Below, piece by piece: positions 55,938 to 63,961 of a DNA stretch of 64,000 nucleotides; the stretch's first letter is position 1, and each line of letters starts with the position of its first letter. Origin of the DNA: Candidatus Hadarchaeota archaeon (GTDB lineage: Archaea; Hadarchaeota; Hadarchaeia; Hadarchaeales; JAGGTB01). The notes below the pieces were generated by a model that was given only the letters and a program-made list of their open reading frames with translations, was not told the origin of the DNA and searched no databases. Made by a program: the position numbers and the translations under genes. The stretch is taken from positions 77,820 through 141,819 of the forward strand of contig CAYLJV010000004.1 in NCBI GenBank assembly GCA_964384105.1. Direction: 5' to 3'.

Positions 55938-56024
55938 TCCAGTGTTTACGGGTATCTCTATTTGGATATTAATAGTTTGAGTAGTTATAGAAAAAATCTT
56001 CAGGAATTGGAAGATGTCGTTAAG

Positions 56025-56279
56025 TTATACTCTCTTCAAAGCAAATTTGAACCAGTTAAAGTGTATGAGGATGTGTATCAGTGCTATTGCGCTGAAAATT
56101 AAACTTATATAGATGTGGATATCTCTCCACTCGAATCTGTTAAGGCCCAAGAACGTATCGAAGACTGATCCTTCCCCTTGGGGCAGTATAGTCCATGTTA
56201 CAATTCCGGAGATCAAAGCTACTAAAAACGTCAACAATGTTAGAATGTTTACACTTAGTTTCAATTCGATTTTATTCAT
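56025..56279 (-). CDS. DUF4405-like haem-b membrane protein
   Basis: ISG..., W.DIH.....F......H..IHFNW. Confidence 0.8.
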   Translation of the reverse strand: MNKIELKLSVNILTLLTFLVALISGIVTWTILPQGEGSVFDTFLGLNRFEWRDIHIYISLIFSAIALIHILIHFNWFKFALKRV

Positions 56280-56462
56280 TATTTCCTGCTTATTCTCCCA
56301 TTTTCTATTGTTTTTAACTTTATTATTTTCTTCTATAGTTCTTAAGGTCTTGAAGACGAAATCTGTCTGATAATATGACTTTTTGAACACAGATCCTACT
56401 TTTTAAACAGAGAGCACTTTTTTAACAAAACCGCCCACTAGGGCTTTGCACAAGAATTAACC

Positions 56463-57455
56463 CTATTTTTGTGCAAGGACCGAATCTGCACAAAAATTAA
56501 AATCAATTTCAATTCCCAGCTCGAACATCTCGTGAATGAGAACTATGATGTTGTGGGTCAAGCACTTCAATAGAATCTCGTTCTTCTGACTCAGTGGTCT
56601 TTCGTTTCTCAGTTTCATTCCTAACTTGCGTTTGAGCATGGCGAACACGGTTTCAGCATTACTCCGCTTGTGGTAGTGCTCCATGAACTCCTCCTTGTGA
56701 TAGTAAAAGTAGTCGTACATCTTCCTCCAGATCCGCGATCCCCTAGATTGTCCCGTGGCGTTGCTCCTGAACGGAATGTAGGGCACTCCTCCGTTTCGAC
56801 TGACTGCCTCCATGTTCTTTCGGGCACTGTAGGCCTTATCCGCACTTACCTCCCTTATGGAGAAGTGCTTTCCTGTGTTCTCCACCAGGGGAACGAACTC
56901 GGGGCTGTCTCCGCTTGGACCCTCCGTGACCCTAACTGCTGTTATCACGTTCGTTTTAACTCCGCTCATTACGTGAGCCTTTAAGAACTTTCTCAGCTCA
57001 CTCGGATTGTTATATTTGGCATGGTTCCACTCTTCGTAGACCTCTGTGCTGAATCCCGAGCTGTCCACCGTGAAGTCCTGTTCTACGCTTTCGAGCGGCT
57101 TAGCGGTTATGCTAATAAGCTTGTTCAATAATTCTGGGAGGTTTTTATCCCGGTAGAAGTTCAATATACTGTTGAAGTGTGGAACATCGTCCACAAGTCC
57201 CTGTTCTTGAGCCTCCTCGACCTCGCTTACAACTCGTCTGGAACTCTTTCCTGTGTACGTCTGCAACAATAAGGAGAAAAGCCTCGTCCTGATATCGTGT
57301 CCTTTTCTGCCCTTTCCAGGCTTTTGCTTCTCTTCGATTATCTTCAGGAGATCATAGACTAGACGTTTGAAGTGGACCTTCTCCGTAGTCTGGGCCAAGT
57401 TGTAAGCGGGCCAGTCTTGAGTACACTTTTCCTTAATTTCATTAGCTTTTTCCAT
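56463..57455 (-). CDS. DDE transposase, IS5 family (IS903-like)
   Basis: VDSSG, K.H, ADKAY, YHKRSNAETVF...KRK.G..LR. Confidence 0.93.
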   Translation of the reverse strand: MEKANEIKEKCTQDWPAYNLAQTTEKVHFKRLVYDLLKIIEEKQKPGKGRKGHDIRTRLFSLLLQTYTGKSSRRVVSEVEEAQEQGLVDDVPHFNSILNFYRDKNLPELLNKLISITAKPLESVEQDFTVDSSGFSTEVYEEWNHAKYNNPSELRKFLKAHVMSGVKTNVITAVRVTEGPSGDSPEFVPLVENTGKHFSIREVSADKAYSARKNMEAVSRNGGVPYIPFRSNATGQSRGSRIWRKMYDYFYYHKEEFMEHYHKRSNAETVFAMLKRKLGMKLRNERPLSQKNEILLKCLTHNIIVLIHEMFELGIEIDFNFCADSVLAQK

Positions 57456-57502
57456 TATCTTATTACCATATTCCCATAAGGTAATAAATAACATAAAAAT
57501 AT

Positions 57503-57524
57503 TTCCCTTAAGCTAATAAGGGAA
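57503..57524. promoter_or_regulatory. Inverted repeat, putative operator between the divergent transposase and RHH genes
   Basis: TTCCCTTA-N6-TAAGGGAA, flanked by two AATAACATAAA direct repeats. Confidence 0.55.
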
Positions 57525-57549
57525 TAAGTGAATAACATAAACTGATAAG

Positions 57550-57750
57550 ATGGGTGAAATGAAAATTGTTCTACCGGATGATCTTGAAGAGGAGTTCCGA
57601 GAAGAAGTTTTCAAAACTAGGGGTATGAAAAAAGGAAACCTCAGCAAATCTGTCAGAGAAGCTATAGAAATGTGGATCGAAGCTAAAAGAAAAAAAAGAT
57701 CAGATGCTGCCAAAAAGGCTTGGGAAAAAAGAAGAGAAGATAAAGATTAG
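57550..57750 (+). CDS. Ribbon-helix-helix regulator
   Basis: I.LPDDLEEEFR...KKG.LS..V.EAI..W. Confidence 0.85.
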   Translation: MGEMKIVLPDDLEEEFREEVFKTRGMKKGNLSKSVREAIEMWIEAKRKKRSDAAKKAWEKRREDKD

Positions 57751-57756
57751 TTTTTT

Positions 57757-58779
57757 GTGATTATGAGTTCGAAAGATTGGATAGAAAAAAGAATAGAAAA
57801 CTTGATTAGAAGATCTGAGGAATTTAAAGCTATTGAGCCTAATATTGCAAACAACTTCCAGTCTTGGACTGCATTAAAACTTATAGTTTTAGCGATTGTT
57901 GTAAATTTCTATACGAGTATCATAAGAAAATATCCTTTTTTTGAAAACGTTTATTTTATTGATGCTTTATCAGGGGCAGGTGTGTGTGATATGAGAGACT
58001 GTCCTGAATGTGTAATAGGCTCCCCCCTTTTAGTTTCGGACATGGCTGGTAATTTTTTCTCAAAAATGTATTTTATTGAACAAAATGACAATTACAGAAA
58101 CGCCCTTGGTAAAAGATTGAATTATCTCAATAAAAATGAAGCTTTTGAATTAGAAAAAAAGAATTATGAGATTAAACATGGTGACGCTAATGAAAAGATA
58201 CCCGAAATAATCGAAGAAATAAGAAAAGAAACAAATTTCGAAAATTGTAATTATCTGGCTTTTATAGACAATCAAGGTTTTGACGTAAAATGGAAAGCTA
58301 TGAGTAAATTAATTGAACCTTATGGTGATTTGTTAATTAATTTTCAAACGGGTAGTTATGCTAGAGAGTGGGGTAAGGCTAAATCAGGAGATACAAATTC
58401 AATTAAGTTACTTAACGAGTTCTTTGGCACTAACTTCGATGAGTTTGCTTGGTCTCAGGTAGATGGAGGGGATGGACTTAGAAATCTTTATATGAATAGA
58501 TTAGCGGATGAAGGAAGAGAAATTCAGGACTATATAACTATTCGTAGCAAGAAAGGAAGAACGTTTCGATACGATATGATTTACTGTACTCGAAAAACCC
58601 GTGGGGGGAGTCCGTATATACAGGTATTCAAAGATGTAAAACCAAAAATAGAGAAACACACTGGCGATTCTGTGGATAAAATTTTGAAGATAATGCGTGG
58701 AGATTATACTTCATTAGATTACTTCTTTCCCGAGAAAGATAAAACAGAACAGAAAAAATTGTACTCTTTTGAAAGTTAG
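57757..58779 (+). CDS. tcmP: Three-Cys-motif partner protein (SAM-methyltransferase-like fold)
   Basis: WTALKL...Y, IDALSGAG, GSPL, FIE, GDAN, AFID; next to DUF5131. Confidence 0.85.
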   Translation: MIMSSKDWIEKRIENLIRRSEEFKAIEPNIANNFQSWTALKLIVLAIVVNFYTSIIRKYPFFENVYFIDALSGAGVCDMRDCPECVIGSPLLVSDMAGNFFSKMYFIEQNDNYRNALGKRLNYLNKNEAFELEKKNYEIKHGDANEKIPEIIEEIRKETNFENCNYLAFIDNQGFDVKWKAMSKLIEPYGDLLINFQTGSYAREWGKAKSGDTNSIKLLNEFFGTNFDEFAWSQVDGGDGLRNLYMNRLADEGREIQDYITIRSKKGRTFRYDMIYCTRKTRGGSPYIQVFKDVKPKIEKHTGDSVDKILKIMRGDYTSLDYFFPEKDKTEQKKLYSFES

Positions 58780-58784
58780 ATTTT

Positions 58785-59474
58785 TTAAATTTTAAAATAC
58801 CCATTTAGTAATCTTTTTAAATTTCTCTTTGCTCTGATTTCTGTAAATTCTTGAATTTTCTCTTTCAAATTTTCAATTTTTTCAGAATCAGGCTCCATTA
58901 AATTGTTATTTTTACTATCAGCTCCAATGCTTACAAACTCTGGATTTACTGTTCTAATCCATTCGACAAATTGTTCTAAGTCGAAATCCATTATAGGCTC
59001 GATGGAGACCATTTTTCTTGACCAGTTGACTTCTAGAAAATCTTTATATCTTTGATACGGTTCCGGAGCTTTTGAGATATGGTAGTTTCTGTTTGTCTCT
59101 AGCGTGGTGCCAACAACACTCTCTTCTGGTAAAAAGTCAACAAATTCAGCAATTCGAGAAGGATTCTTACTCTGAAATAAGTATGTATTGGAAAACTCTT
59201 TGCAGTAGTTCAATATCCCCTTTATTGCTTGTTCGGGGACCCACTCTCCAAACAAATCAGTAGCGGACCCTACGAAAATAATTTTATCCGAACCGAGATT
59301 CGTCTCTAACTCTTCATCTACCAATTCGACATTACCATTATACTTTTTTAAATTTCCAAGAAATCCCCTTTCCATGTAGCAATACCCACATTCGTGCAGG
59401 CATCTGCCTGCAAGTGGATTCCAAGTGTGTGTTACCCACGGATACATATGTCCGTTCGTTTTGTTCAAACCCAT
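58785..59474 (-). CDS. DUF5131 / phage Gp37Gp68 radical-SAM-like protein
   Basis: TWNPLAGRCLHECGYCY, SATDLF, FQSKNP, GTTLET, SIEP. Confidence 0.88.
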   Translation of the reverse strand: MGLNKTNGHMYPWVTHTWNPLAGRCLHECGYCYMERGFLGNLKKYNGNVELVDEELETNLGSDKIIFVGSATDLFGEWVPEQAIKGILNYCKEFSNTYLFQSKNPSRIAEFVDFLPEESVVGTTLETNRNYHISKAPEPYQRYKDFLEVNWSRKMVSIEPIMDFDLEQFVEWIRTVNPEFVSIGADSKNNNLMEPDSEKIENLKEKIQEFTEIRAKRNLKRLLNGYFKI

Positions 59475-59478
59475 ATTT

Positions 59479-59688
59479 TCACTTCCTACATCTCCTCTGA
59501 ATCAGTCCTTCTTCTATAGCTCTTTCAATATCTATATCGTATTTTTCAAGTTCATCTAAGTGATCTCCTATCCAGTCCTTTATTATGAAATTAGCCACAT
59601 CAGATTCAGATTTTCCTTTTATCCCAACTAACTCCTTTACTACAAATTTTGTGTATCCCTCAGTATAAACATCAATTTTCTCGGACAT
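59479..59688 (-). CDS. Small RHH-like protein (69 aa)
   Basis: MSEKIDVYTE...GKSESDVANFIIKDWI; the ORF-track extension runs through non-coding repeats. Confidence 0.65.
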   Translation of the reverse strand: MSEKIDVYTEGYTKFVVKELVGIKGKSESDVANFIIKDWIGDHLDELEKYDIDIERAIEEGLIQRRCRK

Positions 59689-59691
59689 TTT

Positions 59692-59709
59692 CACTGTATT
59701 AATACAGTG
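59692..59709. promoter_or_regulatory. Perfect 18-bp palindrome, putative operator
   Basis: CACTGTATTAATACAGTG, 3 nt upstream of the 59688 start. Confidence 0.65.
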
Positions 59710-59755
59710 TATAAACAGTAAAAAGATTTTCCCCCATTTTAAAAATATCTTTAGA

Positions 59756-59900
59756 AAATAGGGATTTGCACAAAAGCCGCTTTTTGCAAAGTAATTGCAT
59801 AATATACGAATATTGCACAATATTTGTCCAAGAAGTTGCACAAAATAAGCCGGTCTACACAGAAACCGCACAGAAACCAACCATTTCTTGTGTAAACACT
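59756..59900. repeat. Cluster of transposon-end-like (TG)CACA..A(G/A)CC / TTGCA motifs
   Basis: GCACAAAAGCC, TTGCACAAT, GCACAAAATAAGCC, ACACAGAAACC, GCACAGAAACC within ~140 bp. Confidence 0.7.
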
Positions 59901-59909
59901 AAAGCAGGT

Positions 59910-62864
59910 CTAGAACTCGTCGATCTTCTGTTGTCCGCTGCCCTCGCTGATAATTTCTGCACCCGCTAATTCTTTAACTTCTTCTTTCCCCATTCCTTCT
60001 ATTACTGCTCCTACATCAGTACCGTCCCTTCTTGCTTTTGATAGAGCTTTAGTATAGAATGATATTTCTTCTGCCCTATTTCCTAACCCCAAAGGGGTGA
60101 GGACAGCCCTGTCAAGACCTTTACTTTTAGTTTCTTGATTCGATAAAAGATTGTTAATTTCTTTTTTAATGTTCTCTTTTTCTTTTTTAGTGAGACTATC
60201 AGGATTGAGTATAGGACAATTCTTTGCCTCATAAACCACAAATCTATTTAATCCTGCGTTCCACCTGCCGTGTAATTCCCGAAATAAATCAAAAAGAGAA
60301 CAGTTCATAATTCCCGCTAACAAATTTGTAGATACCTCCTCTTTTGGATAAACTTCATATAAATTACGGTTTGATACTAACGAGTCTGGATTAGTAGAAA
60401 CGAACATTCTTTTCCGAATCATTTCTGGGATCATTAAATCTGGTATTCTTAGATTTCCTAAATCAAACCAACAGCCGTTTTGACTTCTGTACTGTTGACA
60501 AGTTGGGCGTTTATGAGGTGGATTATAATGTCCCCAATCTTTCTCCCACATAGAATGAACAATATATTTGTAGAGGCCTTCGTAACCTTCATCGTGAAGA
60601 CAGCGTAATACGTATCCCTCTTCAGAAGATAGTTCGTCCAAGTTCACGTTTTTAGGCAAGGTTTTCTTATTAAGTTTAATTCCCTTTAATCGTTTTTCTG
60701 AGATATTCTGAAGTTTTTCTTTAACGTATTTATGAATATCAATAACTAAAAGTTCAGTGTCTTTTTCAGTGAAATCTATCGTGTCTGTTTGGCTTATAGA
60801 TTTTGCCACGGGGCTCAGAAACCTTTCATTTATGCCCCAACCTTTTGCTTCTTCTTCTTTCATATAGAAAAAATCATTAGCACCACTCGTAATTCCTCTT
60901 CTAACTTCCGCAATATCATTAAGCTTGCAGATTTTTTCGTGGTTGAGAAGCTTCCAGTAAATCGGTGGGGCATAAAGATATCTATTCCACTTTTCAACCT
61001 CTAGTAAATCCTCCTGAGTTTTAGTAATCAAACGATAATCTTTCTCGTCATTTAGGATATCGGGTTCAAAACCATCCTCAACTATTTCGACCAAATTTTC
61101 TAGATTCATACTTTCCTTTACTCTCAGAAATTTTACGATGTTGGAATTTCTTTCATCCTCGTTATCAGACTTTTCTAGTATCGTCACACAAGTTGGCACT
61201 AGTGGAGTTTCAAAAACCCGTTTACTAAAGCTAATGATAGCTTTAATCTTGAAATTTTCGAGAAAGAATTCCTGGAGATCCTTACCGTAGCCAACCGTCA
61301 ACCATTTGTCGGAGGTTATGAACCCGATTCTTCCTTTTTCTTTCAGAAACTCTGTAGCGTGAGTAAAGAAATATGCATATATATCAGACCTTTCACTCAT
61401 TTTCTCAAAATCTAATCGTCTTAGATGCTTTCTACAGAGTTCTTTGTCAGAAATTAGCTCTTGACGTATATAAGGTGGATTAGCAACCACTACATCAACT
61501 TCTGGAGGAACATTCAGATTTTCGTTCCACGACCCCTCTCCTTTAGCAAGGAATGGATCAATCCGCTCCACTGAAAGCCTCCCTTGGTTTGAATAAACGT
61601 TGAAGAAGTCTTGAACTTCTACATTAACATGTTCGGTTTTAGCACCTAAATCTTGAAGAGCCAAGTTTATGGCAGTGAGTTGAGCAGGGAAGCGATTAAT
61701 GTCGATACCGTATATCTGATCTAATAGTTCTGAGTGATTGGTCGATTGACCGGCATCTTCCTTTAGCTCTTTCAGAACATTATAGGAGTTAATCAAGAAG
61801 GTTCCACTTCCACAACCGGGATCTAGGACCTTGTCATCAGGATCTTTTATCGTCAATCTCGTGATAAGTTCCACTATTTGAGGCGGAGTATAATATTGAC
61901 CCAGACCGTGTCGAACCTCAGGGGGGATTGTGTCCTCGTAAATATACCCGATAGTATCATGCTTGAATTCTCCCAAGTCGTAGTGATCTAATTCTTCAAG
62001 GAATTCCCCAACTTCAAGACTAGCTTGGTCCGTTAGAGGTATCTCATCAAAGATGGGGTCATGTTCGTAAATCGGCTCGAAATCCACATCTTTAACTACC
62101 TTATCAAAGGCCTCTCTTCTCTCCTCTGGTTCTGCTAATTTTTCAAGAGGCAAATCAGGAACATCATAACCGGTATCTTCGAGGACTTTGTAGAAAAACA
62201 GTTTATTCATAAGCAAATAAGCAGCCTGGCTCGCAAATCTTGACTTCTGCTTGTCCTCTTCAATATCCCAGCCTTGTCTGTTAATCCAATTGTCGAATTT
62301 TCCTTTAAAAGAGGGTTCCTCAAGTTTTTCTTCCAACTTTTCAGGGAGTTCTCTAGTGAGGCGATCGTGAAATTCCTTAAGACGTTTTACAAAGGTATCC
62401 CTCTTGTGCTCCCACTTCACCTCTCCCTTTTCTATACCAGCCGCTTGTTCCAGGAGGTTAGAGGCAAACTTTCGAGAGTCAGTTACCTTGTAGGCTCTTG
62501 CTTTCCTATCAAGTAGATGAACTCCCCTTTCATGAGTTCGAAATAAGACCAATTGGCTACCATTATAGGTTGCAAAGTAAGGTGCCCCCAATTTGCCAGC
62601 GTAACCCCAAGCCTGTTCGATTACTTTTGGGGAATAGGGATCTAAATTTCTGTTAGGTCCCCCTTGAGATGGTCTTTTAGCTTCAATGACTAAGAACGGG
62701 CTTCCTCTCCGATCTTCGATAACAATATCGGCCTTACCACCATTGACGTTTTCTTCGGGCCTAACATTTCCGAACTCAAAACCATAGTATTCGGACTGGT
62801 CCTCTATAGCATCCTGTAAATGTCGGTAAAGCTCGAAATGTATCTCCGCTTCCGATTGAGGCAT
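59910..62864 (-). CDS. Type IIG-like restriction-modification fusion (PD-(D/E)xK nuclease plus N6-adenine methyltransferase plus TRD)
   Basis: ADIVI..IEAK nuclease; GQYYTP, DPGCGSG (motif I), NPPY (motif IV). Confidence 0.92.
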   Translation of the reverse strand: MPQSEAEIHFELYRHLQDAIEDQSEYYGFEFGNVRPEENVNGGKADIVIEDRRGSPFLVIEAKRPSQGGPNRNLDPYSPKVIEQAWGYAGKLGAPYFATYNGSQLVLFRTHERGVHLLDRKARAYKVTDSRKFASNLLEQAAGIEKGEVKWEHKRDTFVKRLKEFHDRLTRELPEKLEEKLEEPSFKGKFDNWINRQGWDIEEDKQKSRFASQAAYLLMNKLFFYKVLEDTGYDVPDLPLEKLAEPEERREAFDKVVKDVDFEPIYEHDPIFDEIPLTDQASLEVGEFLEELDHYDLGEFKHDTIGYIYEDTIPPEVRHGLGQYYTPPQIVELITRLTIKDPDDKVLDPGCGSGTFLINSYNVLKELKEDAGQSTNHSELLDQIYGIDINRFPAQLTAINLALQDLGAKTEHVNVEVQDFFNVYSNQGRLSVERIDPFLAKGEGSWNENLNVPPEVDVVVANPPYIRQELISDKELCRKHLRRLDFEKMSERSDIYAYFFTHATEFLKEKGRIGFITSDKWLTVGYGKDLQEFFLENFKIKAIISFSKRVFETPLVPTCVTILEKSDNEDERNSNIVKFLRVKESMNLENLVEIVEDGFEPDILNDEKDYRLITKTQEDLLEVEKWNRYLYAPPIYWKLLNHEKICKLNDIAEVRRGITSGANDFFYMKEEEAKGWGINERFLSPVAKSISQTDTIDFTEKDTELLVIDIHKYVKEKLQNISEKRLKGIKLNKKTLPKNVNLDELSSEEGYVLRCLHDEGYEGLYKYIVHSMWEKDWGHYNPPHKRPTCQQYRSQNGCWFDLGNLRIPDLMIPEMIRKRMFVSTNPDSLVSNRNLYEVYPKEEVSTNLLAGIMNCSLFDLFRELHGRWNAGLNRFVVYEAKNCPILNPDSLTKKEKENIKKEINNLLSNQETKSKGLDRAVLTPLGLGNRAEEISFYTKALSKARRDGTDVGAVIEGMGKEEVKELAGAEIISEGSGQQKIDEF

Positions 62865-63001
62865 ATACTCTATTTCTCAATTTGAAGTAAAAGAGTTTTT
62901 ATAAACGAAATTTGTCTGAGCTCTGGCTTTTTTTAACAAAGCCTAGACTTTCAAAAAATATAATAATTATTTAGACCTTATCTTTTAATCGAGAGTATCT
63001 T

Positions 63002-63961
63002 ATGACGAAGAAAAGCCATAAGAAAAAGCCAAATGAAGTCCCAAACAAAGAAAAAATTGAATCAATAGATAACCAAATTGAAAGCGAATTAGATAAGTTT
63101 AAAGAGAAATGCAATAATATAAATTGTTTTCCATTATTTCTCGATGGATCTTCTATCAACCATAAAGTTGTAGATTCCACCTTTGATAAACTAAGAGATA
63201 AGTACGGTGGTAAAAACGAGAAATTATGTGTTATCTTGGATTCGGGTGGTGGTAACATAGATTCTGCATATAATTTAGCACTTTTATTTAGGAGATATGG
63301 AACTAAAAAACTAGAATTTATTATACCGAGATGGGCAAAAAGTGCAGCAACTTTGTTAGCTTTAGGAGGAGATAAAATCTTTATGGGACCAGTAGCAGAG
63401 CTAGGTCCTATCGACCCCCAAATAACACAAATGAATCCCTTGGAGGGAAGAGTAGAAAGTTTTTCTCCTTTACATATTGAATCAACTTTGGAATTAATTA
63501 GAAATGAATTTGATCAAGGAAACGAAAAATTGGCTAAAAACTTAATTGAACGACTCCAGTTCCCATTAACACTGGGAAGTTTCAAAAAATCTCTTGATAT
63601 TGGTAGACAATATATCGTGAAATTACTTAGTACACGAATGCTGAAGAAAAAAGACGGCAAAGAAATGGCAAAGGAAATTGCATATAAACTGACGGAGGGT
63701 TATGCAGATCATGGGTTTTGTATTGACTGTAAAGAAGCGATTAATCTAGGGTTGAATGTTGAAGAGCTAGATGGCGAAGAATTAAATATTATTTGGAGCA
63801 TTCACAATTTAAATAAGCAAAAAAGGAGAATAAAAAGGGAATTGAAGGAGCAAGAAATGATGGATAAAATTCAAAAGTTACCTCCAGATATTCTTGATAA
63901 ATTACCACCTTCATTAGAAAAAGAAATTAATAATTTTACTATACAGGAGTCGGGAAAATGA
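63002..63961 (+). CDS. SDH/ClpP-class serine protease
   Basis: LDSGGG, AKSAATLLALG, LGPIDPQ, Y.DHG..I. Confidence 0.9.
   Translation: MTKKSHKKKPNEVPNKEKIESIDNQIESELDKFKEKCNNINCFPLFLDGSSINHKVVDSTFDKLRDKYGGKNEKLCVILDSGGGNIDSAYNLALLFRRYGTKKLEFIIPRWAKSAATLLALGGDKIFMGPVAELGPIDPQITQMNPLEGRVESFSPLHIESTLELIRNEFDQGNEKLAKNLIERLQFPLTLGSFKKSLDIGRQYIVKLLSTRMLKKKDGKEMAKEIAYKLTEGYADHGFCIDCKEAINLGLNVEELDGEELNIIWSIHNLNKQKRRIKRELKEQEMMDKIQKLPPDILDKLPPSLEKEINNFTIQESGK

Follow-up and report, generated by a model that had tools for sequence, protein, structure and literature searches.

The stretch of DNA analysed here (64,000 nt, hereafter the window) comes from the genome of a Candidatus Hadarchaeota archaeon (GCA_964384105.1, designated G000; 1.62 Mb in 12 contigs, a metagenome-type assembly with archaeal rRNA present), in which it occupies C4:77820-141819, the end of the window being also the end of contig C4. 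Towards this end lie a gene for a DDE transposase of the insertion sequence (IS) family IS5, a small divergent gene, a convergent pair encoding the three-Cys-motif partner protein TcmP and a DUF5131 protein, a gene for a predicted Type IIG restriction-modification (R-M) enzyme and a gene for an SDH-type protease. We regard it as very probable that the region is one real, recently inserted cargo transposon of 8.55 kb, IS903-like and of the IS5 family, whose only transposase gene, of the DDE type, lies at one end; it begins inside the window and finishes on another contig, C8.

Ends, target-site duplication and extent of the element

The left end lies at 56442, where an earlier note on this DNA, made from the letters alone, had placed it, and it proved genuine, having both an inverted partner that agrees in 12 of 12 bases and a 9-bp duplication on C8. 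The transposase open reading frame (ORF) is intact and stops 21 nt inside this end, in agreement with the approximately 20 nt given in that note, which was also right that no end motif is present directly upstream of the gene. In homologues, a GGCTTTG-type end is likewise found just beyond the transposase stop, as at the left end in the window.

An inverted-repeat search of positions 56000-63400 yielded no partner for the left end, and the search was therefore extended beyond the window. Genome-wide, the reverse complement of the left-end 12-mer occurs exactly at only three places in 1.6 Mb: at the left end itself, at C4:29984 and at C8:48778-48789. The last of these is the true right end, an exact reverse complement of the left end located on another contig, with four TTGTGCA-type repeats before it and GCCCACTAG (C8:48769-48777) after it. 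The outer ends thereby form a 12/12 terminal inverted repeat, GGCTTTGCACAA, within a perfect 9/9 duplication, GCCCACTAG, of which no second exact copy was found within the 64-kb window. Computed through the overlap of C4 and C8, the element measures 8,554 bp, of which 995 further bases past the window end are on the reverse strand of C8. The repeat TGCACAA is present in the window in 12 copies versus 3.7 expected, a number reached in 0 of 100 shuffles, and six of the 12 copies fall into two clusters of three, at 56447-56493 and at 59767-59843. The case shows that contig ends can split cargo transposons, and that duplications are better sought genome-wide than window by window.

The third exact copy of the right-end 12-mer (C4:29984-29995, outside the window) is located beside a gene end, with no matching duplication nearby, and may be a solo end.

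Contig junction and independent assemblies

C4 and C8 share their terminal 55 bases in exact reverse complement, and no further contig end matches either of them; overlaps of 54-55 bases were also observed between other contig ends, in the manner of a k=55 assembly graph. The C4-C8 junction is spanned by a 79-aa ORF that starts at 63958. The stretch is contained in four public runs from one study, X1 being possibly the source sample and X2 a different sample. In X1, a single contig over 55900-59969 comprises the flank, the left end, the transposase, tcmP, DUF5131 and an internal end described below, and the remainder up to 64000 is covered, except for two small gaps, by additional contigs; one contig extends 77 bases past the window end. 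The depth in X1 was 6-10 in every bin, both within and outside the element. In X2, a contig over 56321-56686 crosses the left junction.

These data bear on the possibility of an assembly or population artefact, in which the ends would derive from a short element or from two copies and the cargo would consist of ordinary chromosomal neighbours on a chimeric contig path. Such an artefact is what a 12-contig metagenome-type assembly might produce, the path is indeed broken at the C4/C8 overlap, and the letters of the contig running past the window end were not read. We nevertheless consider it improbable: one independent Logan contig (X1, 55900-59969) joins the left flank to the internal end and the rest is tiled, the ends of C4 and C8 match only each other, the depth is even and the transposase single-copy, the flanks on C4 and C8 are linked by the 9/9 duplication, and the 34 relatives described below carry comparable cargo inside their duplications.

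Contig C2 carries at its right end a short dispersed repeat, 23-27 bases in exact agreement, that was found at more than 20 places on contigs C2, C5, C1, C3, C7 and C11.

Transposase

The transposase could be aligned with that of ISVa2 over its whole length (27% identity, E 7e-13), with the catalytic motifs VDSSGF, SADKAY and YHKRSNAE in register and a Y-2-R-3-E-6-K motif at residue 274. Met14 may be its true start. The best plasmid matches are IS5-family transposases with 25-28% identity, ISVa2 included. The earlier description of the protein as IS903-like was borne out. ISVa2, which we take to belong to the IS903 group (the details of the ends of IS903 itself are likewise presumed), is present on the Vibrio anguillarum plasmid pJM1 in the arrangement CCTCTGAAC / GGCTTTGTTGCTTAA ... 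TTAAGCAACAAAGCC / CCTCTGAAC, with ends GGCTTTGTTG and a 9-bp duplication, CCTCTGAAC.

DNA and protein searches of the genome found one transposase copy. A composite transposon is excluded by this single copy and by the fact that 0 of the 34 relatives have two, and a simple IS of approximately 1 kb holding the transposase gene alone is excluded by the length of 8,554 bp and by at least nine other ORFs. What was found, a single transposase, IS-type inverted repeats, a duplication and internal passenger genes, corresponds to a transporter IS or unit transposon. The earlier note had proposed a single-transposase element with DNA-modification or defence cargo, and this part of it is upheld by the single transposase copy and the family matches of TcmP, DUF5131 and the Type IIG protein.

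In a same-genus genome (L039/L019, G001:C4:8911-9100) we detected a transposase relic corresponding to residues 303-343, 71% identical and with one internal TAG; its left end is truncated, with the terminal approximately 20 bases lost.

Cargo genes

The coordinates of all features are compiled in Table 1. The small protein divergent from the transposase had no family match in Pfam, NCBIfam, PADLOC or PHROG and is possibly a ribbon-helix-helix-type regulator. Between its gene and that of the transposase, an imperfect palindrome with 24-nt arms (79% complementary) is located at 57455-57540; in relatives, TCTATATAGAA-type palindromes occupy the same intergenic place, and these palindromes may be operator sites.

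The genes for TcmP and DUF5131 are convergent and 5 bp apart. TcmP matches PADLOC PDC-M41A (E 2.6e-18) and also PDC-M30A, and DUF5131 matches PDC-M41B (E 2.5e-10) and also PDC-M30B, and both the PDC-M41 and the PDC-M30 partners are therefore present, PADLOC PDC systems being candidates and not validated systems. In a protein atlas, TcmP clusters scored 0.95-0.96 and RlmJ-type methyltransferase clusters only 0.81-0.84, which is a weak lead. PDB sequence searches with TcmP and DUF5131 returned nothing usable. DUF5131 is included among the radical S-adenosylmethionine (SAM) subgroups in PMC9477430. By these matches the pair resembles a candidate phage-defence pair, and it may constitute a radical-SAM-dependent system acting on nucleic acid. 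The approximately 70-aa ORF upstream of DUF5131 had no family match in PADLOC or PHROG.

The 984-aa protein, which also matches PADLOC REase_MTase_IIG (9.1e-41), contains the motifs D46-x14-E61-x-K63, DPGCGSG at 348 and NPPY at 462, and BseCI is the closest solved methyltransferase (2.5e-21). It fits the predicted architecture of a Type IIG enzyme, in which one polypeptide combines a PD-(D/E)xK nuclease at the N terminus, an N6-adenine methyltransferase of the gamma class (motifs I and IV) and a specificity region at the C terminus. The protease scored 67.6 bits with NCBIfam Clp_like_SDH, under the cut-off of 250.

Table 1. Features of the transposon and its surroundings (window coordinates unless stated otherwise)
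Feature	Position	Strand	Basis
Left copy of the 9-bp target-site duplication, GCCCACTAG	56433..56441	.	Same 9 bases after the right end at G000:C8:48769-48777
Left end: terminal 12 bases GGCTTTGCACAA, then two further TGCACAA-type repeats	56442..56500	+	12/12 inverted match to the C8 right end
DDE transposase, 343 aa, IS5 family, distant IS903-group relative	56463..57494	-	Pfam DDE_Tnp_1, E 1.2e-17
Small basic protein, 66 aa, divergent from transposase	57550..57750	+	Conserved position beside transposase homologues L134 and L168, 57-61% identity
TcmP (three-Cys-motif partner protein), 340 aa	57757..58779	+	NCBIfam TIGR04474, 85.2 bits vs cut-off 53
DUF5131 (Gp37/Gp68) radical-SAM-like protein, 229 aa, CX3CX2C at residues 25-32	58785..59474	-	PF07505, 42.8 bits vs cut-off 28.9
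Small ORF, about 70 aa	59479..59694	-	ORF list; just upstream of DUF5131 on the same strand
Internal third end, right-end type, GGATTTGCACAA..., facing right	59761..59851	+	Terminal 12-mer matched 11/12
Predicted Type IIG restriction-modification enzyme, 984 aa	59910..62864	-	Pfam N6_Mtase 1.9e-34, Eco57I 5.4e-30, MmeI_Mtase 2.7e-14
Short GGCTTT-N7-AAAGCC palindrome in the divergent R-M/protease intergenic region, proposed as the right end in the earlier note	62925..62943	.	No 9-bp duplication; not an element end
SDH-type ClpP-like serine protease, 319 aa	63002..63961	+	Pfam SDH_protease 2.8e-16; PHROG 11747 9.2e-39
79-aa ORF over the window and contig end	63958..64000, onward on C8	+	ORF list across the overlap
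45-aa ORF and 131-aa membrane protein	C8 part of the element		ORF list

Related elements and their cargo

Transposase matches were found in 27 of 61 related genomes (the source genome counted), and the best full-length matches among these, about 45% identical, belong to another family of the same order. One genome (G054) contains a complete element of 2,814 bp with the left end GGCTTTGCTCATAAACTC, the right end GACTTTATGAGCAAAGCC and ATGAAAATC flanking it on both sides. Another (G044) has 9-bp duplications at the small elements mentioned below, and from these two genomes the expected signature of the family is a duplication of 9 bp and not of 3 bp.

The small elements (L003 and L029, on G044:C56 and G044:C13) are transposase-less and resemble miniature inverted-repeat transposable elements, being approximately 60-90 bp long with GGCTTTG-type inverted ends. 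Their duplications are ATCCCATTC and TTTGGTCGA, and their insertion points immediately adjoin the left ends of full elements.

A protein search gave 2,484 relatives at E <=0.001 among 3,842 candidates, the closest being 80% identical; the few named relatives are archaeal, and one is bacterial. Scanning genome contigs with the single protein detected no relatives, whereas alignment-based scans found them, at 160 loci, half of them in named genomes (80) and half in metagenomes (80). The named genomes are mostly those of Woese-, Pace-, Nano- and Aenigmatarchaeota, Thermoplasmata-type and methanogen-related archaea, together with some Dehalococcoidia, Planctomycetota and Acidobacteriota.

An element was scored as complete if it had an exact 9-bp duplication and inverted ends agreeing in at least 10 of 12 bases, the detectable size being limited by a flank of 10 kb. 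Complete elements were recognised at 37 of the 160 loci, versus 1, 2 and 0 of 160 with reversed, direct and complemented ends, respectively. After three duplicates (L143, L188 and L194) had been dropped, 34 non-redundant elements were left, 1,840-9,208 bp in length (median 4,960) and with one transposase each. The earlier note had named an end immediately upstream of the transposase as what would speak against its model; in the complete relatives, the far end lies well beyond the gene, in elements of 1.8 to 9.2 kb, and on this point the outcome favours the note.

Cargo was tallied by Pfam for 136 ORFs of at least 70 aa, and 25 of 72 families were listed. Among those listed are N6_Mtase (8), UPF0020 (7), Eco57I (5), N6_N4_Mtase, Methylase_S and MmeI_Mtase (4 each), DNA_methylase, TaqI_C, DUF4143 and AAA_14 (3 each), Mrr_cat, HNH, Fic and Endonuc_Holl (2 each), and single cases of EcoRI-methylase, D12 and MvaI/BcnI. 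A relative of the R-M gene of the window is carried by 8 of the 34 elements. Judged by its family matches, the cargo of the relatives is rich in predicted DNA methyltransferase and restriction genes.

Internal end and modular structure

A third end is located inside the element. It begins GGATTTGCACAAAAGCC, has three TGCACAA copies on the plus strand and, compared with a right end in the same-genus genome G001, shows 76.5% identity over 81 bp. It is oriented as the left end, inverted relative to the true right end, with a mismatch at terminal position 3, and together with the true right end it brackets 5,235 bp containing the R-M gene, the protease and small ORFs. No 9-bp duplication of its own was found at this internal end, the bases to the left of 59761 not matching GCCCACTAG. 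A perfect duplication at the outer ends, and none at the internal end, means that the most recent event moved all 8.55 kb.

The element can accordingly be described as two modules. Module 1 (56442-59760) comprises the transposase and the small divergent gene, together with tcmP and DUF5131 in convergent orientation. Module 2, which covers 5,235 bp from 59761 to the right end, comprises the predicted Type IIG R-M enzyme, the SDH-type protease and three small ORFs, and appears to be a transposase-less cassette that merged with the transposase module. The transposase would bind the repeated TGCACAA-type sites of both ends and cut at the GG termini, inserting with a 9-bp stagger as in elements of the IS903 group; the latest move took everything between the outer ends as a single piece. 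The GC content is 46% in the transposase, 33.5% in module 1, 37.4% in module 2 and 38.9% in the rest of the window; this unevenness fits a mosaic origin, and the parts may come from different donors. No cargo in common with the window element was found on G001:C4 beyond its right end or on G006:C14.

The same features could be read differently, with the 5.2-kb transposase-less cassette (59761 to the right end) as the true mobile unit and the transposase module as a separate, end-deleted IS abutting it by chance. The right-end type of the internal end, its inversion relative to the true right end, its closer similarity to the right end of another genome than to that of this element, and the differing GC of the parts are all in keeping with such a cassette. 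However, it is the outer ends that have the perfect duplication and not the internal one, the internal end has its mismatch at terminal position 3, and an internal end-like 12-mer was found in only 1 of the 34 relatives, which makes this reading very unlikely.

The model of the earlier note, a 6.5-kb unit (56442-62943) with 7-bp inverted ends, a TAG duplication and a nested 3.3-kb core ending at 59778, can be set aside almost entirely: the letters it quoted are present (TAG followed by GGCTTTGCAC at 56439-56451, AACAAAGCC followed by TAG at 62935-62946) and CCCTATTTT is indeed common to the left end and the reverse complement of 59755-59778, but the model is already contradicted by the perfect 12-bp inverted repeat and 9/9 duplication on C8, by the lack of a 9-bp duplication at 59778 or 62943, by the alignment of the 59.8-kb end with right ends in the opposite orientation and by the lack of significant end-like similarity in 62894-62943. 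GGCTTTG occurs in the window 8 times versus 6.7 expected, and 36 of 100 shuffles reach 8; at such a chance frequency, the pairing of 56442 with 62943 is no better than chance. The TAG at the left boundary is merely the last three letters of GCCCACTAG, and the nine bases outside 62943, TAGACTTTC, do not match GCCCACTAG in a family that makes 9-bp duplications. The size fell short as well, the element of 8,554 bp extending out of the window. As for the second end that the note had seen near 59778, a real end-related sequence is present there, but it faces right from 59761 and not left; a left-facing reading at 59778 needs a gap and matches worse, in 10 of 13 positions by letter count. With this orientation the proposed 3.3-kb core loses its inverted ends, the internal end bracketing the R-M module and not the transposase module.

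We also compared 62894-62943 with the repeat at 56346-56434 described below, as a possible decayed copy of it; the score of 35 was not above the controls (29-38 in 20 shuffles).

Insertion site

The duplication of the 8.55-kb transposon ends directly before a motif, GAAAGCTTTAAATA, resembling the transcription factor B (TFB) recognition element (BRE) and TATA box of a DUF5320-like gene, and the motif and both neighbouring genes are intact. After the right end follow GCCCACTAG, GAAAGC and TTTAAATA and, at a distance of 82 nt from the terminus by letter count, the DUF5320-like gene; the stretch TTTAAATA...TGAATATATATTC is kept upstream of five homologous genes in the genus. Homologues of the right flank in G001, G003, G004 and G006 have unrelated DNA upstream and no empty site, and the neighbours in G006 are only paralogues of left-flank genes.

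The same register was observed in many archaeal relatives. In 8 of 68 flanks, TTTA[AT]A starts at offset 15 outward from the terminus, every other offset giving at most 3. For 15 of the 34 elements, one flank or both have a BRE/TATA-like motif of the form AAA-N1-3-TWTWWA starting at offset 9-11, immediately behind the duplication, with at most 2 at every other offset from 0 to 54 and at most 2 in the inward control, and the window element shares the offset register of these 15. We infer a promoter-anchored choice of target, which would give the element a harmless landing site.

In G006, another same-genus genome and one without a transposase match, a decayed right-end remnant (L214, G006:C14, at approximately 27560), reading ...TTGTGCAAAGCC, lies 9 bp before the homologous BRE/TATA-like motif of a DUF5320-like gene. 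The adjacent 9-mer differs (TGTTTTTTG), and the remnant suggests an independent hit at the same promoter.

Another end of the [GA]GCTTTG type, facing away, stands at exactly offset 9 in 6 of the 68 flanks, all other offsets from 0 to 79 giving at most 1. The simplest reading of such back-to-back ends would be the repeated use of one promoter-anchored 9-mer. If so, this reuse would explain both the ends of different elements situated back to back 9 bp apart and the fusion of modules into larger transposons such as the present one.

In the window itself, an 89-bp segment at 56346-56434 contains three ACTTTTT(G/A/T)AAC(A) repeats and ends in ...TTTTTTAACAAAACC / ...AACAAAACC, exactly 9 bp from the left end of the transposon. 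This segment is 83% identical to G001:C4:14156-14241, from which a right end belonging to this type of transposon is 14 bp away, and a second copy of the repeat was not found in the genome of the window. The segment resembles an end from a different IS903-like subfamily (compare L006).

Discussion

Several points weigh against the interpretations given above. The join of C4 and C8 is deduced from the 55-bp overlap and the matching duplication, and the four public runs contained no joints and no empty-site form. Left-flank DNA, used to look for the empty site, found no match in six same-genus genomes except for an 87-bp repeat in G001. Only one copy of the element is present in its genome, and a further copy with this cargo was not found. 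The transposase scored 127 bits with NCBIfam IS5_2 (NF033579), under the cut-off of 140. None of the relatives was found to carry tcmP as cargo, the sole tblastn match (L189) being outside the element side. The motif AAA-N1-3-TWTWWA was picked after the flanks had been seen, and the BRE/TATA-like motif is a predicted promoter. All functions assigned to the cargo are predictions from family matches.

That the region is a single cargo transposon seems to us very probable in spite of these points, as said at the outset. For a wider proposal we see the evidence as evenly balanced, namely that a large, apparently undescribed IS903-like cargo group, found mainly in DPANN-type archaea, Thermoplasmatota and methanogen-related archaea, routinely ferries R-M and defence genes and targets the archaeal promoter with a 9-bp cut directly upstream of BRE/TATA, perhaps via DNA bent by TATA-binding protein and TFB or via contact with these factors. 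If the promoter-anchored targeting is true, it would represent a site-selection rule undescribed for a prokaryotic DDE transposon within the literature searched. It would also allow the element to land without harm and would connect the transposition machinery with that of transcription. Small archaeal genomes can, with such elements, gain whole defence modules in a single transposition, in the present case a predicted Type IIG R-M enzyme, a candidate radical-SAM pair and a protease. The mobility of R-M genes is here tied to an on-board transposase, which is missing from earlier surveys of mobile R-M genes, especially for archaea.

The kind of element is known: it is an IS with passenger genes. 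The literature searched (ISfinder, many subscription papers and supplements being outside the search) contained no description of this IS5/IS903 cargo family or of its targeting. Transporter IS (tIS), in the sense of ISfinder, are IS-like elements with passenger genes, and the element in the window resembles them in its one IS-type transposase, IS-type inverted repeats, duplication and passengers unrelated to transposition; it differs in that cargo is present in 34 of 34 complete relatives (the smallest of 1.84 kb), with R-M genes dominant. With the IS903 group, represented by ISVa2, it shares an alignable DDE transposase with Y-2-R-3-E-6-K, ends beginning GGCTTTG, the 9-bp duplication and a transposase stop near one end. 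Unlike that group, it is 8.55 kb long versus about 1.05 kb, carries at least nine passenger ORFs and subterminal arrays of 3-4 repeats, has an archaeal host, is fixed in position before BRE/TATA-like motifs and encodes a transposase that falls under the NCBIfam IS5 cut-off. Mobile insertion cassettes (MICs) consist of IS ends around passenger genes, without a transposase. Module 2 is similar to a MIC in that inverted ends of the IS type enclose its cargo and a transposase is absent, but unlike a MIC it is without its own duplication and is now inside a larger autonomous element.

Thaumarchaeal IS-like transposons contain one or two genes, according to Krupovic et al. 2019 (PMC6563490). In bacteria, R-M units within inverted repeats and with 8-bp duplications, a Type IIG gene included, have been described by Furuta et al. 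2010 (PMC2853133); in that work the units have no linked transposase, and no archaeal case survived the selection. The element in the window is like these units in having R-M genes inside inverted repeats with a target duplication, and unlike them in having its cognate transposase on board and in belonging to a family whose hosts are mostly archaea.

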